A stretch of DNA of 50,609 bases from a virus (Duplodnaviria > Caudoviricetes). Under the pieces are notes generated by a model that was given only the letters and a program-made list of their open reading frames with translations, made no database searches and was not told the origin of the DNA. Below, one piece after another: positions 321 to 50,036 of this stretch. The DNA is taken from positions 1 through 50,609 of IMG/VR virus record IMGVR_UViG_3300020042_011508; one strand, 5' to 3'. Position 1 is the first letter of the stretch, and each line of letters opens with the position of its first letter. The position numbers and the translations under genes were made by a program.

Positions 321-1676
321 ATGAAAACATTACAACAACAATATTTACTTATTAAAGAAGGCAAAGGCAATAAAGACTACTTCTTAAAACAAGCAAGAAA
401 TTTATTCCCTGAATATATCACTGTAAATAGTGATTATAAAACAGCCGTTCATGTATTAAAAAGCAAAAGCATTTTAAGTGAAGGTATTGGAGGAATAGTA
501 ACTATGAATCCTAATTCTAAACCTGATTGGTTTAAAATTTTTGATACAAATTTAAAAGAAGCCGTAGGTGTTAAAAACACTAAAGAATATGGTAATCAAA
601 ACGAATTTGATAAAATTGATACTGAAGTACAAAAGACTTTAGATAACGCTAACTTTAATTACAAAAACGAAAAAAATATCGATAACGTTTACGGTCAATC
701 ATTCTTAATGGGTTACTATACCGAAATGAAAGATCCTAAAAACGCTGATAAAACCGTAGATGAATTAAAACAAATTGTATTAAAAAACATGGTTAAAGAT
801 GTTACTTATTACAATACAAAAACTTCATTCGGTGTTAAAGACATTGGATACACAAAAGATGTAGTTGGTGGAGGCGATTCTGTAGCACCTAAAGGTAAAT
901 ATAAATCATCAGGATATGGTGACATGCCAAAAGCTAAAGTTGTTAAAGAAGGAATGGAAAATCAAGATGGTGATTATATTTGTTGGAATGCTGGTTCTAA
1001 TATTTATGACATAGCAAAATATAATAGTAATATTTCTTGGCATAATGATAAAGATGTTTTTAGAGGTTCTTTAAAAGATTGTGAACGATATAAAGAAGAA
1101 ATGGAGCAAAAATCATTTGAAAAAAATAATTTTGACGATGATTATTTTTTGCGTAAAGATTTAAACGAAGCTAAAAGTAAAAAATCAAATATTCATACTC
1201 GTATTAAAGACTTAGAAAAACAAAATGAAGTTTTAGCATTAGAATCTAAAATAACAGCATTAGACGAAGCAATCAGTGAATTAACTCAAAAAGTATCATT
1301 ATCTGAATCTGATGATTTAGCTGAAATGATGGATCCTAAAAAAATTAATGAACTTAAAAAAGATATTAAACAGCTTGAAAAATATAAAATGCAATGTGAA
1401 AAAAAATTATCAAAATTAGGTGGTAAAAAAGAAATAGTTGACGAAGTAGTAACAGGAGAAAATCCATACTTTGATACTGATCCATCTGATGGTGATGCTG
1501 ATGAGGTTGAAAATAGTCGATACGGTGCTGAAAATTACTATGATAAAGGTAAAAAAGCATTTGAAGAAGGTGATTTAGAAAAAGCACAAGAATATTACGA
1601 ATATGCTTTAAACTTTGGTAGTAATATAGGTTGGGATGAACGTGAATTACCTCCATACGAAACATTAAATAACTAA
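321..1676 (+). CDS. Putative internal head/prohead core protein with coiled coil; start probably ATG 321 (MKTLQQQYLLIKE), not 267
   Basis: ATATTTATA at 307-315 precedes ATG 321; directly upstream of the prohead protease (stop overlaps its ATG); many (L/I/V)xE motifs. Confidence 0.6.
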   Translation: MKTLQQQYLLIKEGKGNKDYFLKQARNLFPEYITVNSDYKTAVHVLKSKSILSEGIGGIVTMNPNSKPDWFKIFDTNLKEAVGVKNTKEYGNQNEFDKIDTEVQKTLDNANFNYKNEKNIDNVYGQSFLMGYYTEMKDPKNADKTVDELKQIVLKNMVKDVTYYNTKTSFGVKDIGYTKDVVGGGDSVAPKGKYKSSGYGDMPKAKVVKEGMENQDGDYICWNAGSNIYDIAKYNSNISWHNDKDVFRGSLKDCERYKEEMEQKSFEKNNFDDDYFLRKDLNEAKSKKSNIHTRIKDLEKQNEVLALESKITALDEAISELTQKVSLSESDDLAEMMDPKKINELKKDIKQLEKYKMQCEKKLSKLGGKKEIVDEVVTGENPYFDTDPSDGDADEVENSRYGAENYYDKGKKAFEEGDLEKAQEYYEYALNFGSNIGWDERELPPYETLNN

Positions 1677-2284
1677 TGAAACAAGTATTAATTGAAACAA
1701 TCCCATTTAATGTATCTCCAATACAGTTAACTGAAGGTATGAAAGCACCATCAGGTAACCCTATGGTTGAAGGTATTTTAGCTACAGCTGAAGTAAAAAA
1801 CGGTAATGGTAGATACTATTCTAAAGATTTATGGGAAAGAGAAATTGATAAATACATGGATGTGGTTAAAGGAAATAGAGCAACAGGTGAATTAGATCAT
1901 CCTGAATCTACAATTATTAACTTAAAAAACGTATCACATATCATCAGACAAATTAGATGGGAAGGTGATAAAGTGATAGGCAAAATAGAAATATTACCAA
2001 CAACATCAGGCAATATATTAAAAGCTCTTATTGACAATAATGTTATGGTCGGTGTATCATCTCGTGGAATGGGTAGCTTAAAAGAAATGAATGAAGGTAC
2101 TTTAGAAGTACAAGATGATTTTGAATTATTATGTTGGGATTTTGTCTCAACTCCTTCAAACCCAGGTTCATATATGAACTTAGTAAGAGAAGGTAAGGAA
2201 AATAATGTAGTAAACCCGTATAATAAAGTAAATTCATTATTAACTGAGATTTTATGTGCTAATGGTTCTTGCCCTATATTTTAA
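1676..2284 (+). CDS. gp21: Prohead core protease (T4 gp21-like)
   Basis: Motifs NGNGRYY, GELDHP, VSH, GVSSRGMGS, DFVSTPS typical of gp21-family proteases; upstream of scaffold and capsid genes. Confidence 0.93.
   Translation: MKQVLIETIPFNVSPIQLTEGMKAPSGNPMVEGILATAEVKNGNGRYYSKDLWEREIDKYMDVVKGNRATGELDHPESTIINLKNVSHIIRQIRWEGDKVIGKIEILPTTSGNILKALIDNNVMVGVSSRGMGSLKEMNEGTLEVQDDFELLCWDFVSTPSNPGSYMNLVREGKENNVVNPYNKVNSLLTEILCANGSCPIF
2211..2284 (+). repeat. Direct repeat copy 1 (3' end of the protease gene)
   Basis: 74 bp matching 3370-3443 with 4 mismatches; the last 57 bp (2228-2284) are identical. Confidence 0.95.
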
Positions 2285-2316
2285 ACAAAAACAAACATAT
2301 TTATAAATAAAAAACA

Positions 2317-2625
2317 ATGGAAAACATATTCGAATCAGTAGACAAAAAATTAAAAAAATTAAGAGAAGTTGGCGCTGAAAAACCATCATTAACTAATACT
2401 AGTGATGAAAAAATGCTGTCAGCACTTGTAGACAAATTACCTACATTAAAAGCTAAATTAAAAAATGTTGATCAACCTATTGAATTAGATGGTTTTTTTA
2501 AAACTTTTATAGAACAATTAGGTTTAAAAAATGTTAGTAAACAAACGGTTATGCTTGCTCTTAGAAAAGCATTAGATAATTTAACTCCTGGTGAACCAAC
2601 TATCACTACTAAAAAAATAAAATAA
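2317..2625 (+). CDS. Hypothetical protein, candidate capsid-internal protein
   Basis: ORF 102 aa; ATATTTATA at 2297-2305; N-terminus MENIFES...KKLRE. Confidence 0.65.
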   Translation: MENIFESVDKKLKKLREVGAEKPSLTNTSDEKMLSALVDKLPTLKAKLKNVDQPIELDGFFKTFIEQLGLKNVSKQTVMLALRKALDNLTPGEPTITTKKIK

Positions 2626-2638
2626 TATTTATTTTTAA

Positions 2639-3223
2639 ATGATTAAATTTGTTGATATATTAAATGAACTGGGAGAAGGTTCTAAATCATTTAATACAAA
2701 AGAAGTTTCTCAAGGTCAACAAATTTGGTTTAATATTGATGATCCTGATTTTCCTATTAGTAATTTTTGGATTTCTATAGCTATAGCAGATAAAGATATT
2801 ATAATAGGTAAAACACCTGATAATATATCTAAACCAAGATTTAAATTAGATAAAAGTGAAGGAAACGCAGCTAAAATAGATTTTGGAATTGTTGAAAACA
2901 ATGAATGGACTTTTCCTGTGTTAAATAAAGGGTATTTGTTTGGTATAATGGGAACTGTTGTTAATTCTATTAAGACTGTTTTAAATAAATACAAAAATGT
3001 TGAATATTTATTATTTGTTCCTGCAAATAAAATAAAAACTACTACCAAACAAACTAGTAAACTTAATTCTAATAAAAATTCAACACCCCAACAAAATACT
3101 CAAACTAGTGATAATGGTTCACAACGTGAAAATTTATATTTAGCATTTGTTAAAAAACAATTACCTAATGCTGAAATAACTAAAGAAAATGGATGGAATA
3201 TTATAAATATTTCTAAACAATAA
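2639..3223 (+). CDS. Hypothetical protein with MIKFVDILNE leader; resembles 44305-44814
   Basis: ORF 194 aa; ATATTTAT at 2625-2632. Confidence 0.7.
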   Translation: MIKFVDILNELGEGSKSFNTKEVSQGQQIWFNIDDPDFPISNFWISIAIADKDIIIGKTPDNISKPRFKLDKSEGNAAKIDFGIVENNEWTFPVLNKGYLFGIMGTVVNSIKTVLNKYKNVEYLLFVPANKIKTTTKQTSKLNSNKNSTPQQNTQTSDNGSQRENLYLAFVKKQLPNAEITKENGWNIINISKQ

Positions 3224-3236
3224 AATAAATAAAACT

Positions 3237-3443
3237 ATGAATACAATTAACTCTTGGAAATCAAAAACTAAACAAAAAGACAAATTTGAAATTACAATTC
3301 GTATTTCAACAATTACATTATTTGAAATCAATATTGACTTATCTAAAAAATCATATAGCTTTATGCTATTAAATCCTTATACTAAGGTAAATTCATTATT
3401 AACTGAGATTTTATGTGCTAATGGTTCTTGCCCTATATTTTAA
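3237..3443 (+). CDS. Chimeric small ORF: unrelated N-terminus fused to a copy of the protease C-terminus (NPYTKVNSLLTEILCANGSCPIF)
   Basis: The C-terminal 23 aa match the protease C-terminus except for one residue. Confidence 0.6.
   Translation: MNTINSWKSKTKQKDKFEITIRISTITLFEINIDLSKKSYSFMLLNPYTKVNSLLTEILCANGSCPIF
3370..3443 (+). repeat. Direct repeat copy 2 (duplicate of protease 3' end)
   Basis: Matches 2211-2284; both copies are followed shortly by CAAACATATTTA. Confidence 0.95.
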
Positions 3444-3477
3444 CTAACACCAAACATATTTATTTATATATAAAATA

Positions 3478-3981
3478 ATGAAAAAACAAATATTATCTGA
3501 AGAATTTAAAAGAATGCAAAAACTAGCAGGAATTATTATAGAATCACCCTTTAATAAAGATGGTGAACCATTAATGACTCATAACCAATATCGTGATTAT
3601 AGCGAACCATCAGAAGAAGATTATGATAATCAACATCACCACGATGAAGATATAAATATTAAAAAAGAATTCATTGGAGAAATGAAAAGAAACAATATTT
3701 TTGTTGAAACATTTAATGGCAATGAATATTTTATTCGATGTAAAGATTATGAAGATTTTATGATATATTTTACTAATAATGATACAATTGAAATATATGA
3801 TACTAATGATGATCAAAAAAAAGAATTTAATTTTCAAGATGCTGTTGATTATACATTATCTAACAAAGATAGACTTTATTCTTTTGAAGAATCTGTTAAA
3901 TCTAGAAATAAAGAATATGAAATAGATGCCCAGGATAGAAAAAACAATAGAGCTGAAATGGGCGGTTATGGTTTAGGATAA
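3478..3981 (+). CDS. Hypothetical acidic protein with leader MKKQILSEEFKRMQKLAGIIIE, candidate capsid-internal protein
   Basis: ORF 167 aa; ATATTTAT at 3456-3463; leader resembles the scaffold C-terminus RWQLLAGI. Confidence 0.7.
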   Translation: MKKQILSEEFKRMQKLAGIIIESPFNKDGEPLMTHNQYRDYSEPSEEDYDNQHHHDEDINIKKEFIGEMKRNNIFVETFNGNEYFIRCKDYEDFMIYFTNNDTIEIYDTNDDQKKEFNFQDAVDYTLSNKDRLYSFEESVKSRNKEYEIDAQDRKNNRAEMGGYGLG

Positions 3982-3989
3982 ATTTTAAA

Positions 3990-4877
3990 ATGAAGCTGTT
4001 AAGTATTTTAAAAAATATCATTTTAGAAGCTAAACAAGCTGGAGACTTATATCATTTTACTCCAGTATCATATTTAAAAGATATTTTATTAACTCAATAT
4101 TTATATCCTAATGATGAAAATCAAATTTCTACATCTAGAAGACCTAACATGTCTACTCGAGATTTTCAAGATATGAAAACAAACTCTATAGCTAGAATAA
4201 TGCTAGATGGAGATAAAATAAGTAATAAATATAAAGTTAGACCCTTTGCTTTTGGTGCTAATGAAAATAATCCCGAAGATTTAGGAGAAGAACAGATAGT
4301 TGTAAATGGACAAAAATTCCCATTTATTCCTTATCTTAAAAGGATAGATATTTTTTTAAATAAAAAAACTAAAGTAAATGATAAAATAGTTGAACTTTTA
4401 GAAAAAGCAAATATACCGTATAAAATATACCCTAACATACCAATATCTAATACTCCATATACTCAACCTAAAAAAGACAAACCAGAAGATATTAATATAT
4501 CTAATATCCCTAAAAGAGAAATATATAGTGCATTAGAATTATATTTTCCAGGAATGAAAACTAAAAAAATTCCATATTATAATACATACAATGGTGATAA
4601 TGAAAATGATCGTCTTGTTAGTATGAATGTAGGAATATCCCCAGAATATCCTAATCATTATCTTGGTTTAACTTGGCTTAGTCATAGTAAATATTTAAAG
4701 GATCATTGGTATAATAAAAATGGTAAAAAAATTAATAACTTAAAAATAGTACCTATTCCTATGTATAAAGATCCTAAATGGTTAAAAAAATGGGAAAAAA
4801 ATGTTCAAAAACCATATACTAATTTATCTTATGATTCATATCTTCTTATACCTAAAAAAGAAGTAGATGTTGAATAA
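3990..4877 (+). CDS. Hypothetical protein with leader MKLLSILKNIILE and possible ADP-ribosyltransferase-like domain
   Basis: ORF 295 aa; LYHFT ... ISTSR ... GEEQI motif order resembles ART folds (by eye). Confidence 0.5.
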   Translation: MKLLSILKNIILEAKQAGDLYHFTPVSYLKDILLTQYLYPNDENQISTSRRPNMSTRDFQDMKTNSIARIMLDGDKISNKYKVRPFAFGANENNPEDLGEEQIVVNGQKFPFIPYLKRIDIFLNKKTKVNDKIVELLEKANIPYKIYPNIPISNTPYTQPKKDKPEDINISNIPKREIYSALELYFPGMKTKKIPYYNTYNGDNENDRLVSMNVGISPEYPNHYLGLTWLSHSKYLKDHWYNKNGKKINNLKIVPIPMYKDPKWLKKWEKNVQKPYTNLSYDSYLLIPKKEVDVE

Positions 4878-4885
4878 TTTAATTT

Positions 4886-5056: not shown

Positions 5057-6082
5057 ATGACAAACAGAGATTTGCTAAAAGAAGCAATCGCAGATGCCAA
5101 AGCAGTTAAAGAAACAGCTATCGCAAATGCAAAACTAGCTCTTGAAGAAACTTTCAACCCATTCCTAAAAGAAAGATTAGCAGCAGTGCTAGCTGAAATG
5201 GATGAAATGGAAGAAGGTGAAGAAGAGTTAAAAGAAGAAATGCATGATGATGCAATGGAAGAAGAAATGCATGATGATGAAATGGAAGAAGACATGAAAA
5301 TGGATGAAACCGAAGAAGACATGGATTTAGAAGAACTTTTAAGAGAATTAGATGAAATGGATTCATTAAATGAAGCAGAAGATTTATTAAACGGTAACGT
5401 TGATGAAGAAGAAGTTGCTAAAGGTGTTGATGATGATGCTGATGGTATCCCTGATAATATGGATGCTGACATTAACATTGAAGACATGAGTACTGAAGAT
5501 CTAGAAAATTTTATTAAAGACGTAATTTCAGACATGGTATCATCAGGCGAATTAGAAGCTGGTGAAGGTGAAGAGGAAAAAGAAGAAGAAGAAGAAGAAA
5601 TGGAAATGGGTGAAGAAGATGAAGAAGAAGAAATGGATATTGATGCTATAGTAGCTGAAATTAAAAAATCAAAAGCTAAAAAATCACCAGAAAAAGATGA
5701 TGACGAAAAAGAAAAGATGAAAAAAGAACTTAAAGAAGCTTATGACGCTTTAAAACATATCAAATCTGAATTAAACGAAGTTAACTTATTCAACGCTAAA
5801 TTACTTTATACAAACAAAATCTTTAGAAACAAAAATTTATCTGAATCACAAAAGGTAAAAGTATTATCAGCCTTTGATAAAGCTGTTAATGTAAAAGAAG
5901 CTAAATTAGTATATGAAACATTAAGTGAAGGTTTAAAAACAACAAAAACCCCAGTTAACGAATCATTATTAAGAGGTGCTGCATCTAAAGTATCAGGTAT
6001 TGCTCCAAAGAAACCAATTCTTGAAGTAAACAACCAGGTAAGCAGATGGCAGTTATTAGCTGGTATCAAAAAACAACTATAA
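5057..6082 (+). CDS. Prohead scaffolding/core protein (gp22-like role)
   Basis: Very acidic, helical 341-aa protein between protease and major capsid genes; C-terminus SRWQLLAGIKKQL. Confidence 0.8.
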   Translation: MTNRDLLKEAIADAKAVKETAIANAKLALEETFNPFLKERLAAVLAEMDEMEEGEEELKEEMHDDAMEEEMHDDEMEEDMKMDETEEDMDLEELLRELDEMDSLNEAEDLLNGNVDEEEVAKGVDDDADGIPDNMDADINIEDMSTEDLENFIKDVISDMVSSGELEAGEGEEEKEEEEEEMEMGEEDEEEEMDIDAIVAEIKKSKAKKSPEKDDDEKEKMKKELKEAYDALKHIKSELNEVNLFNAKLLYTNKIFRNKNLSESQKVKVLSAFDKAVNVKEAKLVYETLSEGLKTTKTPVNESLLRGAASKVSGIAPKKPILEVNNQVSRWQLLAGIKKQL

Positions 6083-6120: not shown

Positions 6121-7893
6121 ATGTCAAACATACATCAATTATTAGAAAGCTCTGCAGGATCTTGGAAAACACTCCAAAGTGATGCTGCTAAATTAGCTTC
6201 TAAATGGACCAAAACGGGTCTATTAGAAGGCTTAACTACTGTGGACAGTAACAACATGTCCCTTTTATTAGAAAATCAAGCTAAGCAATTAGTAACTGAA
6301 ACAAACCAAATCTCATCAAATTCATCATTCACTTCAGGTGGACAAGGTGAAAACTGGGCTGGTATTGCTTTACCATTAGTTCGTAAAGTATTCGGTACTA
6401 TTGTAGCAAAAGAATTCGTTTCTGTTCAACCAATGAATATGCCATCTGGTCTTGTATTCTTCTTAGATTTCCAATACGGAAACAGTAAGACTCCATTTAC
6501 AACAGGTGATTCTTTATATGGTAATAGAAATACAGCTTCTGAGTTTCCATTTTCTACTCCAACTGCTGATGGTGGTTTATATGGTGCTGGTAGATTTACA
6601 TACTCTACTAACCAATTTTCTAGCTCAGCTATTAACTACACTGCCTCTGTTCTTAACTCATCAGTATTTAATACTGCTGCAGTTGCAGCAAACTCAGGTA
6701 GTATCGTATCAGCATCATGGGCTGAATTAAATTTTGATTCTACTTATTCTGCTTCAGTTGCTGGTGCTGGTAGTATTTATAAACTTACTATTTCTGGTGG
6801 TTTATATTTACCTTCATTTGATCAAGATGCAGTTCGTGGTTTCGTACCTGTATCAGGTAGTGGTATTAGTGCTACAAACTTGTTACCACAATTTACAACT
6901 TATAATTACACAGCTAATACAATTGCTTTCTTCTTTACTGGTTCTGCAAACTTCGTTGGTATCACAGCTGCCAGTACATTAACTGTTAACTACCAAAAAT
7001 CAACATCACAAAATGGTATCAACGTTACTTCAGGTAACAACGCTGCATCAGCAGTAGGTGGTAACCAATCAGGTCGTGGTGATTTTGAAGCTTCTGGTTC
7101 ATTTTCAGTACCAAACGCTACTTCAGCTACTCAAATCTCAATTCCTGAGATTAACGTTAGAATGCAATCTCAACCAATTACTGCTAAAACTAAAAAGTTA
7201 AAAGCTGTATGGACTCCTGAGTTTGCTCAAGATTTAAGCGCTTACCAAAATATCGATGCTGAAGCAGAATTAACTAACATCATGAGTGAGTACATTTCAA
7301 TGGAAATTGATTTAGAAATCTTAGACATGTTGATCGAAGATGCAGCAGCTGGTACTGAGTACTGGTCAGCAATTAACAACCAGATTTATAATGGATCTAC
7401 TTTAGTTACTAATGCTTCAGCGTTCTATAATACTCAAGGTCAATGGTTCCAAACTTTAGGTACTAAAATCCAAAAGTTAAGTAACAAAATTCACCAATTA
7501 ACATTACGTGGAGGTGCTAATTTCATCGTAACTTCTCCAACAGTAGCTACTATCTTAGAATCAATCCCAGGATTTGCTTCTACAAGCAATGGTGAAGCTG
7601 ATCAAATGGAATACGCTTTCGGTGTACAAAAGATTGGTACTGTAAACGGTCGCTATAAGGTTTACAAAAATCCTTACATGACTGAGAATTTAATGTTAAT
7701 GGGTTACAGAGGTAGCCAGTTCCTAGAAACAGGTGCTGTATTCGCTCCGTACATTCCGTTGATCATGACTCCATTAGTGTACGATCCAGATACTTTCACT
7801 CCAAGAAAAGGTCTATTAACTCGTTACGCTAAGAAAATGTTGCGTCCGGAGTTTTATGCTAAAATTTATGTTAGTGGTTTAAACACTATCTAA
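6121..7893 (+). CDS. gp23: Major capsid protein (T4 gp23-like) with Ser/Thr/Ala-rich insertion
   Basis: LLENQA, LPLVRKV, VSVQPMNMPSGLVFFLDF, AKTKKLKAVWTPEFAQDL, DAEAELTNIMS, FAPYIPL, FTPRKGLLTRY motifs. Confidence 0.95.
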   Translation: MSNIHQLLESSAGSWKTLQSDAAKLASKWTKTGLLEGLTTVDSNNMSLLLENQAKQLVTETNQISSNSSFTSGGQGENWAGIALPLVRKVFGTIVAKEFVSVQPMNMPSGLVFFLDFQYGNSKTPFTTGDSLYGNRNTASEFPFSTPTADGGLYGAGRFTYSTNQFSSSAINYTASVLNSSVFNTAAVAANSGSIVSASWAELNFDSTYSASVAGAGSIYKLTISGGLYLPSFDQDAVRGFVPVSGSGISATNLLPQFTTYNYTANTIAFFFTGSANFVGITAASTLTVNYQKSTSQNGINVTSGNNAASAVGGNQSGRGDFEASGSFSVPNATSATQISIPEINVRMQSQPITAKTKKLKAVWTPEFAQDLSAYQNIDAEAELTNIMSEYISMEIDLEILDMLIEDAAAGTEYWSAINNQIYNGSTLVTNASAFYNTQGQWFQTLGTKIQKLSNKIHQLTLRGGANFIVTSPTVATILESIPGFASTSNGEADQMEYAFGVQKIGTVNGRYKVYKNPYMTENLMLMGYRGSQFLETGAVFAPYIPLIMTPLVYDPDTFTPRKGLLTRYAKKMLRPEFYAKIYVSGLNTI

Positions 7894-8036: not shown

Positions 8037-8951
8037 ATGAAAGAAACCCCATCGCAATTAAAGGTTCCAAGTTATGTATTAAACTTCCCCTTTTCTTTAA
8101 ACACCGAAAATCCAAATAATATTTGGATGGAAGAATTATCACCTGAAGAATTACAAATTAATAAACCAAAAGCATACAAACAGTTTATGGATTTGTATAA
8201 TTTTATTGCTGGTGGTTCTTTAGTTTATTTATTACCCTCGTATGGTGATTATCAAGATCAAGTTTACGTAGCTAACGTTGGAATTCATTTACCCCACATT
8301 AAAGACGATAATATCGTGGTATTATCCAATTTTACTTCCGAACCTAGACAAGGTGAAGAATTAGTAGCTAAACCATTTTTTGATTTAATGAATTATACTA
8401 CTCATTTATGTCCATTTAAATGGGAAGGTGAGGCAGATTTAAAATATATTGGTGGAAATAATTATATAGGTGGTTATGGTCAACGTTCAACATTAGAGGC
8501 TTATGAATGGATGGAAACAATGTTTGGTATGAATATTATCAAAGTTGAAATGGTTGAACCTTATTTATATCATTTAGATTGTTCAGTATTTCCATTAACT
8601 AATAAAAAAACATTAATTTGTACTGAATTATTTCTACCTGAGGAATTAGAAGAAATAAGTAAATATACTGAAATTATTGATATTAATGTTGATGATGCTT
8701 TTGGTGGAATAACAAACTCAGTAAGAATGGGAAATATGATTTTATGTGCTTCTAATATATCTGAACTAAAACGTACTGATCCTTTATATGATTTAGAAAA
8801 ACATAAAATTGATACATTAGAAAAAATATGTGCTAATGAAGGTTTAGAACCAGTTATATTTAATCTATCAGAATTTATGAAATCAGGTGCAATGTTAAGT
8901 TGTATGATTTTAAATTTAAATTATGTTGATTACTATAAATCATTAATCTAA
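8037..8951 (+). CDS. Amidinotransferase / dimethylarginine dimethylaminohydrolase (pentein) family protein
   Basis: DQVYVAN, R.GE, WEGEAD, YHLDC and C-terminal SEFMKSGAMLSC with the catalytic Cys. Confidence 0.8.
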   Translation: MKETPSQLKVPSYVLNFPFSLNTENPNNIWMEELSPEELQINKPKAYKQFMDLYNFIAGGSLVYLLPSYGDYQDQVYVANVGIHLPHIKDDNIVVLSNFTSEPRQGEELVAKPFFDLMNYTTHLCPFKWEGEADLKYIGGNNYIGGYGQRSTLEAYEWMETMFGMNIIKVEMVEPYLYHLDCSVFPLTNKKTLICTELFLPEELEEISKYTEIIDINVDDAFGGITNSVRMGNMILCASNISELKRTDPLYDLEKHKIDTLEKICANEGLEPVIFNLSEFMKSGAMLSCMILNLNYVDYYKSLI

Positions 8952-9670
8952 TGGCTAAGACATTAAACGAATGGATTAAAACAGATGTTAAACAGGCTGA
9001 GAAAATGTCTATTGAACAATTGTCTAATCAATTTTTCTTTAGAGATCCGCTTAGAACAATGTATATTGACAATGAGCATTTTTATTCACCAGCAGACGGA
9101 ACTATTTTATATCAAAAAATAATTAAAGATCCTACTGAACCAATTGTAGAAATTAAAGGTATAAATTATACCTTACAAGACGCAATGGGTGATAAAGATT
9201 ATAATAAACCATCTTTAGTTGTTGGTATATTTATGTCATTTTATGATGTTCATATCAATCGTATACCTTATGGAGGTTATTTATCATATAAACATATAGA
9301 CGCGATAGAATCAACAAACAAACCAATGTTAGCAACCGAAAAAGATATCTTTAACGGTAAAATTAATCCTGCTAACTTAGAATATTTAAAATATAATGAA
9401 AGAATGTGGAATAAAATTTATTCTCCATCAATAGATTATACTTATTATCTTATACAAATTGCTGACGAAGACGTAAATGTTATTGTCCCCTTTACAACAA
9501 ATCAAAATGATTTGTTTGCTCAAAATGAAAGATTCTCATTAATAAGATGGGGTTCTCAGTGTGAGATCATTGTTCCAATAGATAGTAGGTTTGATTTTGA
9601 ATTATGTCAAGAAGATCACACTCATGTGGAAGCTGGTATAGATCCTATATTTAAAATAATATATAAATAA
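8951..9670 (+). CDS. psd: Phosphatidylserine decarboxylase-like (pyruvoyl) proenzyme
   Basis: FFFRDP, SPADG, IFMSFYDVHINRIP, and the RWGSQ autocleavage motif; start overlaps the upstream stop. Confidence 0.8.
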   Translation: MAKTLNEWIKTDVKQAEKMSIEQLSNQFFFRDPLRTMYIDNEHFYSPADGTILYQKIIKDPTEPIVEIKGINYTLQDAMGDKDYNKPSLVVGIFMSFYDVHINRIPYGGYLSYKHIDAIESTNKPMLATEKDIFNGKINPANLEYLKYNERMWNKIYSPSIDYTYYLIQIADEDVNVIVPFTTNQNDLFAQNERFSLIRWGSQCEIIVPIDSRFDFELCQEDHTHVEAGIDPIFKIIYK

Positions 9671-18032: not shown

Positions 18033-18905
18033 ATGATAAATATAACTTACGATCGAAATCAAAATAAAACTAAAGTTGAAGTAAGTAAATTTAATGTTAT
18101 TAAACAACATTTACCTTTAAAGGTACAATTTAAAAACATTATTACAGATGAAATTCATTATGAAGCTGAATTAAATGACTATTATTGGGTTGAGTGGTGT
18201 GGTTCTGAATTAATTACTGATGTTTTATTTTACTCATCAGATGGAACTTTATTATATGAATATAAATGGGATGTAACAATTCATGGTGATGAAATTGAAA
18301 AAATGTTATGGTTTTATTTAAAATCTAAAAAAATTCAAGGAATAAAATCTAATGGATTAGTAATTGGTTCACACGATGGGAGAAACGGACATTGGATTTA
18401 CCCAGTAAAACACAAATTAACAGATGCTACTTTAGTAGATGGTAGTGATAAACAATATATTGAATTAAAACAAAATTATAAAGATAATCCTAACATAGAA
18501 ACATTAAATACTATTGTAACTACAGATGGTTCTGATGTTGAATGGTACCAAGGAGGAGAAGGTTATACAGATACTATTGTCCCATCAGTTATTAATAGTT
18601 GGTTAAATACTTCAGAAATTGTAAAAAGTTATAGAAAAAGTATATCAATTAATGATTTAATGAAAGATAAAAACTATGATTGGTTACATTTAGATGTTGA
18701 AGGAATTGATGGTGATTTAGTTTTAGCACTAGAATATAAACCCAATGTTATTATTTATGAAAGTATGAATTTAGATCAAATTATGAAAGCTAAACTTAAT
18801 TTATGGTTTATAAAAAATTTATACGAAACAATAGAATGTAACGGAAATACTATTGCTATAAAAAAGGAATTTAATTTAGATTCTTTAAACCCTAAAATAT
18901 TATAA
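18033..18905 (+). CDS. FkbM-like SAM methyltransferase with N-terminal extra domain
   Basis: LVIGSHDG (motif I-like), LHLDVEGID, IIYES. Confidence 0.65.
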   Translation: MINITYDRNQNKTKVEVSKFNVIKQHLPLKVQFKNIITDEIHYEAELNDYYWVEWCGSELITDVLFYSSDGTLLYEYKWDVTIHGDEIEKMLWFYLKSKKIQGIKSNGLVIGSHDGRNGHWIYPVKHKLTDATLVDGSDKQYIELKQNYKDNPNIETLNTIVTTDGSDVEWYQGGEGYTDTIVPSVINSWLNTSEIVKSYRKSISINDLMKDKNYDWLHLDVEGIDGDLVLALEYKPNVIIYESMNLDQIMKAKLNLWFIKNLYETIECNGNTIAIKKEFNLDSLNPKIL

Positions 18906-18916
18906 ATAAAATAAAT

Positions 18917-19486: not shown

Positions 19487-19490
19487 TATA

Positions 19491-34753: not shown

Positions 34754-35664
34754 ATGAATATAGTAGGTGAAGATTTTAATCAAGAAATAGCAAAACAAGT
34801 AATTCAAAGACAAAAAATTTATGGTTCTATAAATAGAAGTAATGAAGAATTAACTTATTTAAATGCTAGAACTGGTTGGTGTAAATTAATGTCTGGAGTA
34901 TCTGTTAATCCCGCAGAATTAAATACTTTTGCTAATATTAGAAATTTAAATATACCTTCAGGAAACTTCTTAGCTCAAAACCATGTTTTATGGAATGGTG
35001 TAACATCTTTTAATACTGAAAATAATAATCATTTTGGAATAATCAAGGTATAGCTACAGATAAAAGTGTATTTAATGATGGAGCATATGGTTTTGGAGGA
35101 TTAGAATTAGGTATAAGACCAATGCCGGGTATAATTTCAGCAGAAATAAAAACCGAAACAAGAGGTTCAATTAAAAAAGCTACTGTAAAAATCCAAGCAA
35201 ATAATAGAACTCAATTTGATATAATTGATTTATTATATATGCGTTTAGGATATAGTGTTTTATTAGAATGGGGTCAAAGTTCTTATTTTAATAATGATGG
35301 AACTTATATAAAAAAAAATCCTTATAGTTTAGCAATACCTTGGTTTACAGAAAAATATGCTACTGTTGGTGGAGGAACTGCTCCTTTAACATATAATTCT
35401 ATATTAAAAGTTATAAATAGTTATAGATTATTATCTTGTGGTAATTATGATGCTATTTTTGCTAAAGTAGTTAATTTTAGTTGGAATTTTACTAATGAGG
35501 GAAAATATGATATTACAATAAATTTAATAAGTTTAGGTGATGTAATTGAATCTTTAAAAGCAAATACTTTATTAGGAAAAACAGCAGCAGAAATACAAGC
35601 AGAGGAGGCAGCAATAGAAGAAATAAATGCAAATGCCGCTGCCTCCTCGTTTATTTTTACATAG
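34754..35664 (+). CDS. Baseplate hub-like protein, N-terminal part, interrupted by a -1 frameshift near 35030
   Basis: ORF 34754-35053 continues in the -1 frame from 35029 (SFWNNQGIATDKSVFNDGAYGFGGLELGIRPMPG) into 35122-35664. Confidence 0.6.
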
Positions 35665-35694
35665 AAATAACACAAAACGAAAATTTATATTAAC

Positions 35695-37670
35695 ATGGCA
35701 GAAAAAGATCCTATAGTATCGTTTAAAAACGCTCATGAAATTGGAAGACATTTTTATGATATACAACAACAATTTGAAAACATACCAGAAACTGGTTATG
35801 GTATATATCTTATTAGAAAAGATTATTTAATAGGCACACCCCAAGCATTTACAGCAGCCAATTACTATGCTCAAGATTTTAGTGATGGTATAAAAAAACA
35901 ATACTATATAAGATTTGGTCGTTTTTTAGATTTTTTAGTAGAAAAAATCATCCCTAATATAAATTATGATAAAGATATTAAATTAATAAAAATAGATACT
36001 AATATTAAATCTAATATAATACATGTATTACCAAGAATAGTTAGTGCTGATCCTAAAGTTTGTACTATACGTACTAAATTTAATTTTAATGAGGTAATTT
36101 ATTATTATGGATATAATACTCAAGAATTTATAATTCCTTTTAATGATTCGGCTATTAAAGGAACATATGGTTATGTGATGAACATTTATTTTAATTTTGA
36201 TTTTATTCTTAATAAAATAGATGAATTAAAAGACGATAAAGGTAAAATATCATTATATAGTTTATTAGATGCTTTATGTAAAGGATTTAATGAAGCAACA
36301 GGTCATTACAATAAATTAGAGCCAATAATTGATGCTGAAGAAAATATTATTAAAATATTAGATGATGTAGCTTTACCCGATAGAAAAGCTATATTAAAAT
36401 CCTCATTATTATCTGGATCTTTTGGAGATGAATTAACAGAAAATGTAATTTTTGATACATACGGATATTACACAGGAACATCAGGTAGTATATATGGTAT
36501 AGGAGTACCTCATGCTGGTTTTATTAAAAATTTAAGTTTTAATACAACTGTTTCTCCTGAATTAGCTACAATGATTACTGTAGGTTCTACAAATAAAGGA
36601 TATGTAAAAGGACAAGATGCGACTGCTTTATCTAGAATGAATAATGGATTAGAAGATAGATTTAAAAAAGAAATTACTAATACTAATCAAGTAGAAGATG
36701 AACTACCTCATTAGAGGTTGAATATAGAGAATCAATTGAAGCATTTAATCTATATATACAAAATTTAGGAGTAAGTGAAACGGGTGGAGAACCTACATAT
36801 ACTGAACAATCAGTTAATGATTATAAAAATACTCAAACTCAATTTATAGAATATCAACAAGCACAAGCAATACTAGAAGAAAAAAGACAACACCCCGAAA
36901 GTACAGCTGCTTCTCCTAATGCAGGATTTTTACCATTTGATTTATCACTAACAATGGATGGATTATCAGGAATGAAAGTATATCAAAATTTTCTAATAGA
37001 TACATCTTTTTTACCTACTAATTATCCTGGTACTTTAGAATTTTTAATTAAAGGTATAACTCATAAAATTGAAGGTAATCAATGGACAACTAATATTGAA
37101 TCAATGGCTATTCCTAAAAATCCATTTGCAGTAACAGGATCCGATAACCCAGTAGATGAAGCTTCACGTAATAGTAATAGAGGAGAAGCAAACTTCAGTG
37201 CAGTACGTGGTGGTTCTTTTAAAACAATAGATGGTGTAAAATATAAAAACGGAGAAATACCTGAAAATAAATTAAGAGCTATAAATAATATGGCTAAATA
37301 TATAGGATCTATTTCAAGTGATAAAATTAATGCTAATGATCGTAGTGGTAGAATTAGATTATATGAAAAAGCCTCTATATCATTAGACAAACTTATAGTA
37401 GCAGCTGAAGCAGCAGGAATAACTGTAAAAATAAACTCAGGTTACAGAACATATGATGATCAAGTAAGAGTTAGAAAACAATACCCAAATGACTCAGCTA
37501 AACCAGGTACATCAAATCACGGTTTTGGTTTAGCAGTTGATTTTGCAACACCTGGATTAAAAAGAGTAAAACCAGGAGATAAATTATATGACTGGTTAAT
37601 AGTAAATGGTCCTAAATATGGATTTCAAAGAATACAAAAAGAAACATGGCATTGGGAATATCAAGCTTAA
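35695..37670 (+). CDS. Baseplate hub-like protein, C-terminal part with M15 (VanY-like D-Ala-D-Ala carboxypeptidase) domain, interrupted by a -1 frameshift near 36708
   Basis: ORF 35695-36714 continues in the -1 frame (LEVEYRES...GFLPFDLSLTMDG) into 36954-37670; SGYRT..Q, PGTSNHGFGLAVD, ETWHWEY Zn-peptidase motifs. Confidence 0.7.
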
Positions 37671-40404: not shown

Positions 40405-40419
40405 TATATGTATAATCAC

Positions 40420-40665
40420 ATGAAAAAAGCAGATAACTTTGATTTAAAAAAATTCATTACCGAAGGTTTGTTTAATTCTAAAAATGAAACGACCGCTAGA
40501 ATACTTGAATTAGAAGAGACAGTCAAGAAATTAGATATGATATTTGAGAATGTTATTAAGTATGATTTATCACCTAACACTCCTAACGTAAACAATCTTA
40601 AAAAGCTGAAAAAGCAGTATATGAATAATATTTTTAATACTATAAGATTCTTAAAAGGCTTATAA
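40420..40665 (+). CDS. Small protein with leader MKKADNFDLKKFITE
   Basis: ATATGTATA at 40406-40414 precedes ATG 40420. Confidence 0.65.
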   Translation: MKKADNFDLKKFITEGLFNSKNETTARILELEETVKKLDMIFENVIKYDLSPNTPNVNNLKKLKKQYMNNIFNTIRFLKGL

Positions 40666-40701
40666 ATAATATTTATAATAAAACAATAAAAATAAATTAA
40701 A

Positions 40702-41184
40702 ATGAAAAAAGCAGATAATTTTGACGCGGGTAAATGGTTAGTAGAAAATAAATTAACTAATCAGTCTCGTTTAGATGAGCTTTCATCTAATACATTTAAA
40801 AGCGCAATAAACGTATCAAAAGAACGTGGTACCGATAGGAGAACATATAAACTTGGAGAGTTATATCTCAACCAATTTATAGGTAAAGATTTGATTGGCG
40901 GTAAGATAACTAATATTGGCGTTCATAGTCCACAACAAAGTAATTATAGAAACATAGCTATAGAAGTTACGAAAAGTATTTATCAAGATAGTGGCTATAA
41001 TAAAGGTGAAAATAAACTTATAAAAGATTATATTTATTACGATATAGATAATGATTTATTTGACATGGAAAGTGTTGAAATAGATAGAAAAGATGCAGTA
41101 GTTCTTGCTAAAATAGCTTTAAAAATAAATCCTGATTCTAGATATAAAGAAACAGGTAAATACTTTAAAATAAAAGGTTATTAA
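40702..41184 (+). CDS. Hypothetical protein with leader MKKADNFDAGKWLVE
   Basis: ATATTTATA at 40669-40677; first 8 aa identical to the 40420 ORF. Confidence 0.7.
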   Translation: MKKADNFDAGKWLVENKLTNQSRLDELSSNTFKSAINVSKERGTDRRTYKLGELYLNQFIGKDLIGGKITNIGVHSPQQSNYRNIAIEVTKSIYQDSGYNKGENKLIKDYIYYDIDNDLFDMESVEIDRKDAVVLAKIALKINPDSRYKETGKYFKIKGY

Positions 41185-41209: not shown

Positions 41210-41240
41210 TTTGGTGTCTCAAACTCAAGTTCTTATATTT
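41210..41240 (+). promoter_or_regulatory. Bacteroidota-type promoter TTTGG-N19-TATATTT
   Basis: Conserved spacing; upstream of SSB. Confidence 0.65.
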
Positions 41241-41265
41241 CCCACAATAAACAAATTAAACAATC

Positions 41266-43236: not shown

Positions 43237-43237
43237 C

Positions 43238-44278
43238 ATGAACAAAAACGAATTATTAAAACTCCTAAACGATACTCCTGAACCCGAACAATCAGTAGAA
43301 ACTAATCCTCATGAAAGAGTATTATTAATAGATGGTTTAAATCTATTTTTTAGAAACTTTGCGATGATGAATTTTACCAATCAAGCAGGTGTTCATGTTG
43401 GTGGTTTAGGTGGTTTTATTCGTTCATTAAATTCCTTAATCAATACAATTAAACCAACATCAGTATATGTTGTATTTGATGGAGTGGGTTCTTCTGTAAA
43501 TCGGAAGAACTTACTCCCCGAATACAAATCAGGACGTAATTTAGTTAGAATAACTAATTGGGATTCATTTGAATCGCTAGAAGAAGAACACGATGCTAAA
43601 GTAGATCAGATTGTTAGATTAATACATTACTTAAAATGTTTACCTGTTAAGACTATAAGTTTAGATAAGGTAGAAGCCGATGATGTTATCGCATATTTAA
43701 GTGATATAATGTCTAATAAATACGATTCTCAGGTTTTCATAGTATCTAACGACAAAGATTTTATTCAACTTATAACGGATAAAATTATAGTTTATAGACC
43801 TACAGAAAAAGATTTCTATACTAAAACTTTAGTTAAACAGAGCTTTGGAGTCTTAACTGAAAATTTTATATTATATAAGACATTATTAGGAGATAAATCA
43901 GATAAAGTAGATGGTATAAAAGGATTAGGCGAAAAAGGACTATTAAAGAAATTTCCTGAATTAGCTGAACGTCCTTGTACACTACAAGATATCTACGATA
44001 TTTCCTGTGCTAAGTTTAAAGAACATATTGTTTATGCGCGAGTTGTTGATGAAATTGAAAAATTAGAAAATAATTATTTAATTATGGATCTACATAATCC
44101 GCTGATGGGCGATATCGAGAAGGATTATATTAACGAGGTTGTGATTGAGCCGTTATCACCACTTAGAGTTAGTGATTTTATGCGTCTTTATAATGAAGAT
44201 GGATTAAGTCATATGATCAAAAATACGGAATATGTACTTAATACTACATACCAAACATTAAACGGTTTCGCAAAATAA
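43238..44278 (+). CDS. 5'-3' exonuclease / flap endonuclease (T4 RNase H-like)
   Basis: LLIDGLN, VVFDG, YKSGR, EADDVIA, SNDKDFIQL, GDKSD.VDGIKGLGEK. Confidence 0.92.
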   Translation: MNKNELLKLLNDTPEPEQSVETNPHERVLLIDGLNLFFRNFAMMNFTNQAGVHVGGLGGFIRSLNSLINTIKPTSVYVVFDGVGSSVNRKNLLPEYKSGRNLVRITNWDSFESLEEEHDAKVDQIVRLIHYLKCLPVKTISLDKVEADDVIAYLSDIMSNKYDSQVFIVSNDKDFIQLITDKIIVYRPTEKDFYTKTLVKQSFGVLTENFILYKTLLGDKSDKVDGIKGLGEKGLLKKFPELAERPCTLQDIYDISCAKFKEHIVYARVVDEIEKLENNYLIMDLHNPLMGDIEKDYINEVVIEPLSPLRVSDFMRLYNEDGLSHMIKNTEYVLNTTYQTLNGFAK

Positions 44279-44304
44279 AGTTATATTTATAACAAAATAA
44301 ACTC

Positions 44305-44814
44305 ATGAAAAAATCAGAATTGAAACAAATTATTAGAGAAGAGATTGTCAAAGAACTATTTGATACAAAAGAAAAAATCAGATGGCGTGAGGGTGAAGAT
44401 ACAGATTTTACTGCTACCTTTACTGGTCCTAATAATCAAAAATACGTAATAGACATTACTTCTTTAGAATATTTAAATTTACCTGATAGCGCAGTTGTTG
44501 TTGCTAGTAAATTATTGCCTGATGAAGTACTTGAAATGTTTAATGATGGTGAAGGATATCATGTTGAATTTAGGGATGCCATTAAAGGTAAAGGCATTAC
44601 TGGGTTAGGTGGTACTGATACAGCAAAGATCTTCGGTATTGTTATCAATGCGATAGTTGATAAAATCAATCGAGAAAAATCCAATCTTGTATTCTTTTCA
44701 GCAAAAGAACCTTCTAGAAAAGAGTTATATAAAAAGATGGCTCCACTTATAGCTTCTGAGTTAGGAATGAAACAAGTTAACAACGGTAAATATTATTTTC
44801 TTTATAAAGATTAA
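44305..44814 (+). CDS. Hypothetical protein with leader MKKSELKQIIREEIVKE; resembles 2639-3223
   Basis: ATATTTATA at 44283-44291; inserted between exonuclease and helicase. Confidence 0.7.
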   Translation: MKKSELKQIIREEIVKELFDTKEKIRWREGEDTDFTATFTGPNNQKYVIDITSLEYLNLPDSAVVVASKLLPDEVLEMFNDGEGYHVEFRDAIKGKGITGLGGTDTAKIFGIVINAIVDKINREKSNLVFFSAKEPSRKELYKKMAPLIASELGMKQVNNGKYYFLYKD

Positions 44815-44855
44815 CCACACATACAAAGTATTAAACAGTTTTACAAAATAAAGTT

Positions 44856-46235
44856 ATGACATTAGGATCACTAGACAAATATGGAATGGGCTTCCAGATT
44901 AAGGTATTATCTTCATTATTAACACATAAGGAATTTTTATTGAATATCCAAGATGTGTTAAGTGATGAATATTTTACAAATCAAGCTCACAAATGGATTA
45001 TTAAAGAAATATTAAGATATTTCACAAAATACCACACTTGCCCAAGTATGGATGTATTAAAAGTAGAACTTAAAAAAATCGATAATGATGTTTTACAACT
45101 TTCAATTAAAGAACAATTAAGAGAAGCTTATAAAGCATCAGATGAAGATTTAAAATATGTTGAAGAAGAATTTTCAAATTTCTGTAAAAACCAACAATTA
45201 AAGAAAGCATTATTAACAAGTGTTGATTTTTTAAATGCTGGTGATTATGATTCAATTAGATCATTAATTGATAATGCTTTACGATCAGGTCAAGATAAAA
45301 ATTTAGGTCATGAATATAACAAAGATACAGAATCACGTTATAGAGAAGATCATAGAACAGTAATACCAACACCTTGGAAAGAAATTAATGATTTATTACA
45401 AGGCGGATTAGGTAATGGTGATTTTGGATTAATATTTGGTAATCCAGGTGGAGGTAAATCATGGTCATTAGTTGCTTTAGGTGGTTATGCTGTAAGTTTA
45501 GGTTATAATGTATTACATTATACATTAGAATTAGGTTCTGATTATGTTGGTCGTAGATACGATGCGTTCTTTACAGGAATTGGTGTTCAAAATATCGCTC
45601 AACATAAAGATCAGATTGAGGCAAAAGTAAACACACTTCAAGGTCAATTAATTATTAAAGAATTCCCACCCGGTAAAGCATCAGTTTCTACAATTGAATC
45701 ACATATTAAAAAGTGTGAAGATTTAGATTTTAAAGCCGATCTTATCATTATAGACTATGTCGATCTATTACGTTCTAAGAAAACAAATAGAGAACGAAAA
45801 GATGAAATTGATGATATTTATGTAAGCACTAAGGGACTTGCTAGAGAGCTAAACTTACCAGTTTGGTCGGTTTCTCAAGTAAACAGAGCAGGAGCTAAAG
45901 ATAATATTATTGAAGGAGATAAAGCAGCAGGTTCATATGATAAAATGATGATTACTGATGTAGCAATATCTTTATCAAGAAAAAAAGAAGATAAGTTAAA
46001 TGGAACAGGACGATTACACATTATGAAAAATAGATACGGAATGGACGGATTATCATATTATATGAAAGTTGATACTTCAACAGGCCATTTTCAAATTATG
46101 TCTCAAATGGATGAAGATGATGAACAAAATCAAAATACACCTCCTCAACAAAATACCCAATTCAGTAATAATATTAGTCCTATAGACAAGTCAATTATTC
46201 AACAAAGATTTTTCGAATTATCAAAAACAAATTAA
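44856..46235 (+). CDS. dnaB: Replicative DnaB-like helicase (gp41-like)
   Basis: GNPGGGKS Walker A, YTLEL, IIIDYVDLL, SQVNR, KNRYG. Confidence 0.92.
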   Translation: MTLGSLDKYGMGFQIKVLSSLLTHKEFLLNIQDVLSDEYFTNQAHKWIIKEILRYFTKYHTCPSMDVLKVELKKIDNDVLQLSIKEQLREAYKASDEDLKYVEEEFSNFCKNQQLKKALLTSVDFLNAGDYDSIRSLIDNALRSGQDKNLGHEYNKDTESRYREDHRTVIPTPWKEINDLLQGGLGNGDFGLIFGNPGGGKSWSLVALGGYAVSLGYNVLHYTLELGSDYVGRRYDAFFTGIGVQNIAQHKDQIEAKVNTLQGQLIIKEFPPGKASVSTIESHIKKCEDLDFKADLIIIDYVDLLRSKKTNRERKDEIDDIYVSTKGLARELNLPVWSVSQVNRAGAKDNIIEGDKAAGSYDKMMITDVAISLSRKKEDKLNGTGRLHIMKNRYGMDGLSYYMKVDTSTGHFQIMSQMDEDDEQNQNTPPQQNTQFSNNISPIDKSIIQQRFFELSKTN

Positions 46236-46258
46236 AAAATAACAAATAAAAAATAACA

Positions 46259-48112: not shown

Positions 48113-48114
48113 TT

Positions 48115-49044: not shown

Positions 49045-49047
49045 AGA

Positions 49048-49081
49048 AAGGCTTGGTTTTCCAAGCCTTCTTTCGTACGTT
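49048..49081 (+). terminator. Hairpin terminator overlapping a TTGG-N19-TACGTT promoter
   Basis: AAGGCTTGG-TTTT-CCAAGCCTT stem; TTGG at 49053-49056, TACGTT at 49076-49081. Confidence 0.6.
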
Positions 49082-49087
49082 TAAATT

Positions 49088-49600
49088 ATGAGTATGATAC
49101 AAGAATTTAAAGAATGGGAAGCTACATATGATCCAACACCACCTAAACCGACTAAAACATATAATAAGTTTTTTTGGTGGAGACGTTATCAAGAACATAA
49201 ATCATTACCTAACCCTAATAAAGTTATAGCTAAAGCTTTAAATGGTGATTATGATTATTCTCCTTACTGGAAACAACTCCAATACGAATATTGGTTTGAA
49301 AAACAAGATCTTAACAAATTCAGAGCTACTTATACTGGTTCTTATGAAAATATAGATTGGAATGAACGTAAAATATCTAAATTGTTTTATGCCCGTAGAG
49401 AACGTTTACTTAAGGATGCAGAAAAAGATGAAAATAATCGTTTAAATTCATTATTTAAAGATATGAAAAAAGAATTTAGTAGTAATGAAGAAGATATAAA
49501 GGAAAAATTTTATAGTTTTGAAGGTACAATTGTTGAATTTATTGAAGCATATAAAGCAACAAGAAATATCCCAGAAATAAAACCTGTACCTAAATTCTAA
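49088..49600 (+). CDS. Hypothetical protein
   Basis: 170-aa ORF (YNKFFWWRRY, NGDYDYSPY). Confidence 0.7.
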   Translation: MSMIQEFKEWEATYDPTPPKPTKTYNKFFWWRRYQEHKSLPNPNKVIAKALNGDYDYSPYWKQLQYEYWFEKQDLNKFRATYTGSYENIDWNERKISKLFYARRERLLKDAEKDENNRLNSLFKDMKKEFSSNEEDIKEKFYSFEGTIVEFIEAYKATRNIPEIKPVPKF

Positions 49601-49628
49601 TATATGTATAATTAAAATAAACAACAAA

Positions 49629-50036
49629 ATGAAAGACTTAATAAGAATGAATCAATTAGCTGGTTTAATTACAGAAAACCAAGCACAAAAAATGATGGCT
49701 GTGTTAAATGAAGAAAAATCATGGGATGATGTTGATAAAGAATTAGCAGATAAAGAAGCTCAAGATATGGAAAATGCTAAAGCATTTACTAATACACCAC
49801 AAGGTAAAAATGCTGTAAGAGTAATTAAAGCTTTAATTAATAAACCATATGGATATGATAAATTAGATAAAGTATTACAGGTATTAAATTTAGATAGACA
49901 AAATTTTATATATGCCGCTGAAGCAGCAGGGATGGATTTTGGAACAGATGCTGCCGGTATTCATATAAATGATGATAATTACCAAGATCAAGATGTATCT
50001 ATAAATCAAATAAATGGTGAGTGGATTGTAGGATAA
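49629..50036 (+). CDS. Hypothetical protein with leader MKDLIRMNQLAGLITE
   Basis: ATATGTATA at 49602-49610; leader resembles the scaffold C-terminus. Confidence 0.7.
   Translation: MKDLIRMNQLAGLITENQAQKMMAVLNEEKSWDDVDKELADKEAQDMENAKAFTNTPQGKNAVRVIKALINKPYGYDKLDKVLQVLNLDRQNFIYAAEAAGMDFGTDAAGIHINDDNYQDQDVSINQINGEWIVG

Follow-up and report, generated by a model that had tools for sequence, protein, structure and literature searches.

Exchangeable N-terminal leader peptides in a T4-like phage fragment as putative capsid-targeting propeptides

Leader-bearing genes of the window

IMG/VR virus record IMGVR_UViG_3300020042_011508 was analysed over its whole stretch of 50,609 nucleotides (nt), hereafter the window, for accessory genes that begin with short leader peptides. 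Family searches of the window proteins identify a 50.6-kb fragment of a T4-like myovirus with a gp21-type protease (1676), a Gp23 capsid protein (6121), sheath, tube and baseplate, which also encodes a gp32-like SSB, recombinase, exonuclease, helicase and ribonucleotide reductase. Open reading frames (ORFs) are named by their start coordinate in the window, so that 2639 is the ORF starting at position 2639. A first-pass annotation had singled out nine ORFs whose N-termini end in (I/L/V)xE and had read them as one modular system of late promoter, capsid-targeting leader and variable payload. All nine N-termini were confirmed in place. Seven of them (2639, 3990, 44305, 3478, 49629, 40420 and 40702) carry an N-terminal leader of 10–22 residues with a hydrophobic-x-Glu end, V being common besides L and I. 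Instead of the single leader type proposed there are four unrelated families, A–D, which are indeed shared by unrelated payloads and are exchanged on one payload at the predicted cut site. These leaders are probably T4-style capsid-targeting propeptides that are cleaved at maturation. The relevant features, all on the + strand, are as follows.

307–314 (+): late-type promoter motif ATATTTAT upstream of 321
321–1676 (+): conserved head-module gene 5′ of the protease; N-terminal domain conserved, length variable, N-terminus ending IKE, no family match
1676–2284 (+): gp21-type prohead protease with LIE-7 and LTE-20 sites of its own; His75, Ser128 and Asp155 align with T4 gp21
2208–2314 (+): 107-nt direct repeat, copy 1, spanning the protease gene 3′ end and a promoter motif
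2317–2625 (+): accessory ORF, no leader family; promoter motif 2297–2304
2639–3223 (+): accessory ORF, leader A (2639–2668, 10 residues, ends LNE); promoter motif 2625–2632
3367–3473 (+): second repeat copy (88%), protease 3′ end fused onto ORF 3237, then promoter motif 3456–3463
3478–3981 (+): accessory ORF, leader C (3478–3543, 22 residues, scaffold-tail-like, ends IIE)
3990–4877 (+): accessory ORF, leader A (3990–4028, ends ILE); no motif of its own, 8 nt after 3478
5057–6082 (+): acidic scaffold-like protein, its role suggested by position and composition; no family match
6008–6079 (+): scaffold C-terminal tail, residues 318–341, matching leader C
6121–7893 (+): Gp23-type major capsid protein
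40420–40665 (+): accessory ORF, leader D (40420–40464, ends ITE); promoter motif ATATGTAT 40406–40413
40702–41184 (+): accessory ORF, leader D (40702–40746, ends LVE; conserved extension to LDE-26); promoter motif 40669–40676
44246–44857 (+): cassette between exonuclease and helicase genes; 39-nt direct repeat at 44246–44284 and 44819–44857, 85%
44305–44814 (+): accessory ORF, leader B (44305–44355, ends VKE), DUF6934-like payload; promoter motif 44283–44290
49629–50036 (+): accessory ORF, leader C (49629–49676, ends ITE; swap junction after LNE-28); promoter motif ATATGTAT 49602–49609

The (I/L/V)xE rule by which the nine had been recognized does not discriminate. Within the first 25 residues it is met by 8 of the 18 window genes that have the late-type motif and 13 of the 34 that lack it (p=0.77), and internal 24-residue segments contain [ILV]xE in 25–31% of cases. 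This chance-level frequency led us to reject the rule as a leader definition. Hydrophobic moment alone was likewise rejected, as leader genes are interspersed with others in the ranking. ORFs 321 and 2317 score in none of the families A–D and are adequately explained by chance occurrence of [ILV]xE. In relatives, 321 is a conserved gene directly 5′ of the protease, not a swapped payload. It sits at the position of T4 gp67/gp68, and 69 copies with that start, 145–593 residues long, are found among relatives.

Four leader families and their exchange

The families were obtained by clustering the first 23 residues of 1,860 ORFs, drawn from the window, four IMG/VR genomes, the cultured Flavobacterium phage immuto_2-6A and 76 protease loci, and counting the unrelated body families in each cluster. 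The top three clusters unite 21, 17 and 14 unrelated body families, the largest also holding 42 terminase N-termini and a few strays. The next clusters, which we read as signal-peptide-like and Rossmann-like starts, unite seven and five. Seed patterns were picked by eye for leader A (short, K-L-x-D-I-L-x-E; 2639, 3990), leader B (S-E-L-K-x-x-I-x-E; 44305), leader C (R-M-Q-x-L-A-G-I; 3478, 49629) and leader D (N-F-D-L-K-K-F-L-x-E; 40420, 40702), and profiles were trained without the genome being tested (threshold 13). The terminal hydrophobic-x-Glu is retained in all families.

In the window the profiles match 7 of 20 unannotated ORFs and none of the 11 early, 17 tail and 4 head-core genes, classes that we assigned from family matches and gene order. 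An equal frequency of leaders in early and replication genes, which the first-pass annotation had named as contrary to its proposal, is thus not observed. Matches in the complete relative G001 comprise 19 of 162 unannotated ORFs, with 0/43 early, 0/20 tail and 0/8 head-core genes; none of its nine homing-endonuclease-like genes has a leader, though most stand behind the late-type motif. Shuffled N-termini match in 0 of 1,040 cases for the window and 6 of 4,960 for G001. Leader genes number 7–19 per genome or fragment, and immuto_2-6A carries all four families on 12 leader-bearing proteins, among them gp40, gp41, gp176–178, gp187 and gp194–195. One tail-region pair, the neighbours 31598 and 31889, has near-identical first ten residues (MGL[L/I]NLLT) with no terminal Glu and belongs to none of the leaders A–D.

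The motif ATAT[T/G]TAT lies 14–33 nt upstream of eight of the nine ORFs, as first described, and is absent in front of 3990. It occurs at 29 sites on the coding strand of the window vs 5 on the opposite strand. Eighteen of the 29 are no farther than 50 nt from a start, against an expectation of 1.7% calculated with shuffled upstream regions, and the motif precedes 9 of 17 tail/neck genes vs 1 of 11 early/metabolic genes, again by our class assignment. In G001 it stands upstream of the terminase, portal, sheath and tube genes and comes without a −33 element. From this distribution we infer that ATAT[T/G]TAT is a late promoter. Leader and motif co-occur above expectation in five genomes (p 0.0006–0.034).

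Payloads that change their leader support the modular design more strongly than the first-pass annotation could show. Among the best 120 of 122 homologs of 44305, leader B is found in 86, A in 13 and D in 7; three carry stacked leaders, eight are unclassed (seven of these being a six-residue leader form) and three have no boundary. Body identity stays at 81–86% across most swaps, with medians of 83% (B), 84% (A) and 82% (D), and swaps are probably undercounted because the query carried leader B. At the junctions I, L or V stands two residues before the Glu in 115 of 117; the boundary rule sets the Glu and leaves this position free. The 49629 payload behaves similarly, with C in 37, D in 6, B in 5 and another leader in 1 of 49 homologs including the window's own, and the 40702 payload has another leader or a fusion in four of seven loci, each with a motif 24–32 nt upstream. 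The slot preceding the SSB gene points the same way, being occupied by a leader gene in 5/5 genomes that cover it, a different one each time with unrelated payloads.

The location of these genes varies as well. The 44305 payload occurs in six different neighbourhoods, a count that excludes a seventh, weak locus, and the motif is directly upstream in four of the six. The slot between protease and scaffold is occupied by leader genes in only 1 of 60 loci covering it, and the three closest protease relatives (91–94%) have no leader gene there. Direct repeats of 107 nt and 39 nt, made up of neighbouring gene ends, bracket two cassettes of the window and suggest that these were inserted by recombination. 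At 3237–3443 a 51-residue gene resident in the closest relatives is 68 residues long in the window, the last 22 residues of the protease having been copied on; the longer form appears to be the footprint of the insertion that brought 3478 and 3990.

Other arrangements were seen as well. In locus L119 (1107–3448) a single late-type motif is followed by four leader-A genes in a row, relatives of 44305 and of 3990 among them. The 44305 slot of G001 (61745–62395, L084) holds an ORF that we read as GIY-YIG-like, with the late-type motif and no leader. Parts of 3478 and 3990 are also represented in lake-water contigs from RNA libraries, one of which skips 2639 with a 21-letter side at the joint. Such contigs indicate presence only and were not used as evidence.

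Head proteins, payloads and setting

Peptidase_S77 and Gp23 matches place a T4-like head module in the window. The protease aligns with T4 gp21 at 35% over 141 residues. Its His75, Ser128 and Asp155, which we take to be the catalytic residues, all align with T4 gp21. His75 and Ser128 occupy sites that were replaced by Ala in the crystallised construct PDB 5JBL. Early hydrophobic-x-Glu sites are present in the protease, the scaffold and the capsid protein themselves, those of the capsid protein (LLE-9 and V-x-E60) being invariant in 36 relatives. In T4, propeptides of 10–19 residues are removed by gp21, which cuts after L/I-X-E (PMC9026906), and the addressing of proteins to the T4-type prohead core is described as an open problem (PMC9958956).

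The acidic protein between protease and capsid genes terminates in the core R-[MW]-Q-x-L-A-G-I, as in leader C. A leader-C profile built solely from N-termini detects this tail in 58 of 58 distinct scaffolds, with a median score of 22.5 vs −3.6 for shuffles and all tails above the 99th percentile of shuffles. Since leader C matches the scaffold tail and, in P22, coat protein is bound by the C-terminal helix-turn-helix of the scaffold (bioRxiv 10.1101/2022.12.13.520362), leader C may, by analogy, borrow the docking site of the tail. Leaders A, B and D match the scaffold in 2, 3 and 0 of the 58 and were rejected as scaffold copies. The sole PDB match of the leader-C alignment, APC16 (E 0.04), was taken as chance. 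In locus L002 (2216–3781), as in further terminase genes, the large terminase lacks about 100 N-terminal residues relative to T4 gp17 and begins at a leader-B-like helix, and many relatives have a leader-B gene directly upstream of the terminase. Leader B could thus stem from the terminase start.

The payload domain of 3990 has 2,204 relative clusters. Among the best 150 of these, 61 have leader A, 2 leader B and 87 are unclassed. A hydrophobic-x-Glu lies at most 16 residues upstream of the domain in 139 of 144 copies, a count biased because the profile included the leader. H22 (100%), T24 (99%), S47 (98%), R50 (94%), E100 (96%) and E101 (92%) are conserved in 145 aligned copies, and the conserved His, Ser/Thr and acidic positions may represent an ADP-ribosyltransferase (ART) triad. 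Ten of 25 scanned relatives, from the best 150, weakly match Tox-ART-HYD1 at E≤0.001 when summed over repeated copies; only three of the ten matches reach the cut-off, and 3990 itself has no match. The best PDB match is DarT1 (8BAQ, E 0.21). Together, the conserved residues, these weak matches and DarT1 as best match make an ART fold likely for the N-terminal payload domain of 3990, though the evidence is weak. Relatives of the domain occur in multi-domain proteins with NUDIX, ART-PolyVal, InPase and DUF6934. Among cultured phages, searches found no relatives of the 3990 and 44305 payloads, and an IMG/VR word search gave none for 3990.

For the other payloads, 2639 resembles DUF6934 by predicted structure (Atlas), and both 2639 and 44305 point to this family only through the Atlas and a sub-threshold Pfam match. 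They were rejected as close paralogs (BLAST E 0.76, profile probability 1.8%), as was the 2639 payload as a T4 Alt N-terminal domain (probability 0.2%). PDB sequence searches with alignments of 2639, 44305 and a small 3990 gave no match. The 3478 payload is acidic with no family match. A family scan of 73 relatives' proteins, 67 leader-bearing by profile and six added by hand, yielded two zeta-toxin-like kinases, one DUF6934 and one DUF5661, most having no family.

The head region of the window is matched in public runs from freshwater and lake metagenomes. By protease the nearest cultured relatives are Microcystis phage Mel-JY01 and Flavobacterium phage immuto (45–47% identity), and the gene order agrees with immuto_2-6A. 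Early genes are preceded by TTGG-N18-CGTATATT, which resembles the Bacteroidota −33/−7 promoter consensus TTTG/TANNTTTG (PMC6847099) and leads us to infer a Bacteroidota host. Sites that look like host promoters (TTGG ... TATATTT) and differ from the late-type motif lie at 41230–41250 before the SSB gene and at 50240–50270 before the last, cut-off ORF. A search for Rfam families and tRNA genes found none. After the capsid gene, 8037–9670 holds two coupled genes with a late-type motif in front, the second phosphatidylserine-decarboxylase-like. At 13722–17906 there is a 1,394-residue collagen-like Gly/Ser-rich fibre, followed at 18033–22696 by a methyltransferase and glycosyltransferase block of lower GC content; the two are possibly a fibre-glycosylation module. 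Four ORFs at 34754–37670 correspond to a single 1,018-residue gene in G001 (50301–53357), and may reflect a gene split in the window or assembly errors.

Interpretation and known systems

We propose that the late-type motif would drive late expression wherever a cassette lands and that the leader would then bind the prohead core or shell, leader C by way of the docking site of the scaffold tail. Cleavage by the gp21-type protease after hydrophobic-x-Glu would free the payload inside the head. We have fairly good confidence in the docking and cleavage of the leader. That at least some payloads, such as the ART-like 3990, are delivered to the next host together with the DNA, in the manner of T4 Alt and IPI, has in our judgement about an even chance.

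Several results weigh against this proposal. In immuto_2-6A the link between leader and motif lacks significance (p=0.28). A late sigma factor could not be firmly identified; a conserved 236-residue protein of G001 (L088 8875–9582) with a weak Sigma70_r2 match (E 6.5e-4) is a candidate for the ATATTTAT motif. Pfam, PHROG and PADLOC searches assign no family at E≤0.001 to any of the nine payloads, and the suggested anti-defence role finds no PADLOC match for any of the nine ORFs. The scaffold gives no docking partner for leaders A, B and D because so few match it, and the T4 scaffold tail compared with leader C shows no match. In 26 of 40 relatives leader B matches the helix at the N-terminus of the large terminase, and this helix is conserved in T4 gp17 too, so that the leader pattern has false positives among proteins not known as head cargo. 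The T4 IPI, IPII, IPIII and Alt propeptides score at most 6.1 on profiles A–D (threshold 13), by which homology to the T4 signal is rejected; leader A and the T4 propeptides apparently share a resemblance, not homology. In favour of a function of the peptide, third codon positions within the leaders diverge (identity 0.49–0.57) while second positions stay (0.74–0.87), which indicates selection on the peptide, but the eye-picked seed patterns inflate amino-acid conservation in this comparison.

The alternatives differ in how much of the proposed route they accept. The leaders could load the prohead core with payloads that are core components or passengers, cut up or left in the spent head rather than acting as effectors; this reading shares every step up to cleavage and departs only on delivery. 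In its favour, a number of payloads are small, acidic or helical proteins that contain additional hydrophobic-x-Glu sites, and leader motifs turn up within longer modular proteins too. Most relatives retain some leader genes close to the head module, and T4 gp22, gp67 and gp68 are degraded to peptides (PMC9958956). Enzyme-like payloads speak against it, namely the zeta-toxin-like kinases (2/73), DUF6934 and the ART-like 3990 family with its NUDIX and ART-PolyVal fusions, and we regard it as unlikely, if deserving of attention. A leader that is an uncut docking helix for a late partner outside the head interior, such as terminase, portal, a replication or a transcription complex or a host protease or chaperone, would fit the terminase-like helix of leader B, the near absence of scaffold matches for A, B and D and the fact that amphipathic Glu/Lys-rich helices are common. 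However, the interchange of four unrelated leaders at one hydrophobic-x-Glu junction is easier to reconcile with a single processing enzyme than with four partners; the scaffold tail is matched by leader C, and tail genes, which are late too, have no leaders. We give this reading a low probability.

The repeats of neighbouring gene ends that flank the cassettes, together with the shuffling of T4-type phage genes by recombination between promoter cassettes (PMC2839356), would also suit a leader that is a by-product of gene birth, in which ORFs are captured behind a ready-made promoter and start, the first codons serving as translation aid or DNA homology arm and the peptide having no role of its own. 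Here the divergence of synonymous positions with residues retained, the terminal hydrophobic-x-Glu kept in all families and the leaderless homing-endonuclease-like genes behind the same motif make such an origin very improbable. Chance, in the form of Glu/Lys/Ile-rich N-termini in an AT-rich genome, accounts for 321 and 2317, as about a quarter of random segments meet the loose rule. For the seven family members it is refuted by exact leader swaps on one payload and by profiles that match 0–0.1% of shuffled N-termini, and as a general account it is scarcely credible.

If leaders are capsid-targeting propeptides, a wider claim can be put forward tentatively, and we hold it at somewhat less than even odds: that a large group of aquatic T4-like phages recombine several independent capsid tags, one of them copied from the docking tail of the scaffold, onto thousands of payload families at the protease site, each phage loading a varying set of 10–20 injected enzymes and inhibitors. 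Under such an open cargo code the tags would predict injected effectors from sequence alone. Confirmed packaging would let the tags flag candidate injected proteins among unannotated phage genes, a single payload family, the 3990 domain, numbering 2,204 clusters, and offer new loading signals, and the natural swaps among four tags with the scaffold-tail match are a testable route to the prohead docking site. The hypothesis is directly testable because cultured immuto_2-6A carries all four families, which provides a host-phage pair for this purpose.

Searches of the openly accessible literature turned up no description of the leader families, their exchange or the scaffold-tail match, and the jumbo-phage review of Iyer 2021 has no mention of "capsid targeting", "propeptide" or "internal head". 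The arrangement probably works like the T4 capsid-targeting sequence (CTS) system of IPI, IPII, IPIII, the Alt propeptide and gp21, without being a member by sequence. Both combine a T4-like head module and gp21-type protease with unrelated, non-conserved proteins whose N-termini are short peptides that end in L/I-x-E. Leader A equals T4 IPII/IPIII in length and spacing (10 residues, hydrophobic 4, 7 and 8, Glu 10); in IPIII, targeting depends on residues 4 and 7 and processing on 8 and 10, and the CTS has already been proposed as an evolutionary means to load varied proteins in T4 and its kin (PMC9026906). The six-residue leader form in relatives and the ART-like payload recall Alt. In contrast to T4, the leaders fall into four unrelated families that do not score as CTS homologs, and leader genes number 7–19 per genome or fragment vs 3–4. 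A single payload can have its leader exchanged or several leaders stacked on it, leader C, unlike the T4 CTS, matches the scaffold tail of its own phage, and the genes are scattered among early regions with their own late-type motif.

In SPN3US/phiKZ, many head proteins are likewise cut after Glu by a gp21-related protease, propeptides are proposed to target the prohead and the diverged paralogs gp53/gp54 have identical N-termini. Their motif is A/S-X-E, however, and the propeptides are mostly >100 residues, with no short-leader exchange between unrelated proteins described in the accessible text (PMC5694885). The P22 scaffold C-terminus resembles leader C, by analogy, as a short conserved coat-docking element, which the accessible part of bioRxiv 10.1101/2022.12.13.520362 does not report on cargo proteins. 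Polyvalent proteins of phages and conjugative elements, described as injected (PMC7824862), are comparable in that relatives of the 3990 domain occur in the multi-domain proteins listed above; here the domains stand alone behind a leader, and neither a MuF nor another polyvalent targeting domain turned up in the window. The PeSL cassettes of RB49/phi1 are also promoter-bearing, repeat-flanked and able to move unrelated ORFs. They employ early sigma70 promoters and terminators and have no protein leader as described (PMC2839356), whereas the cassettes of the window combine a late-type motif with a conserved peptide.

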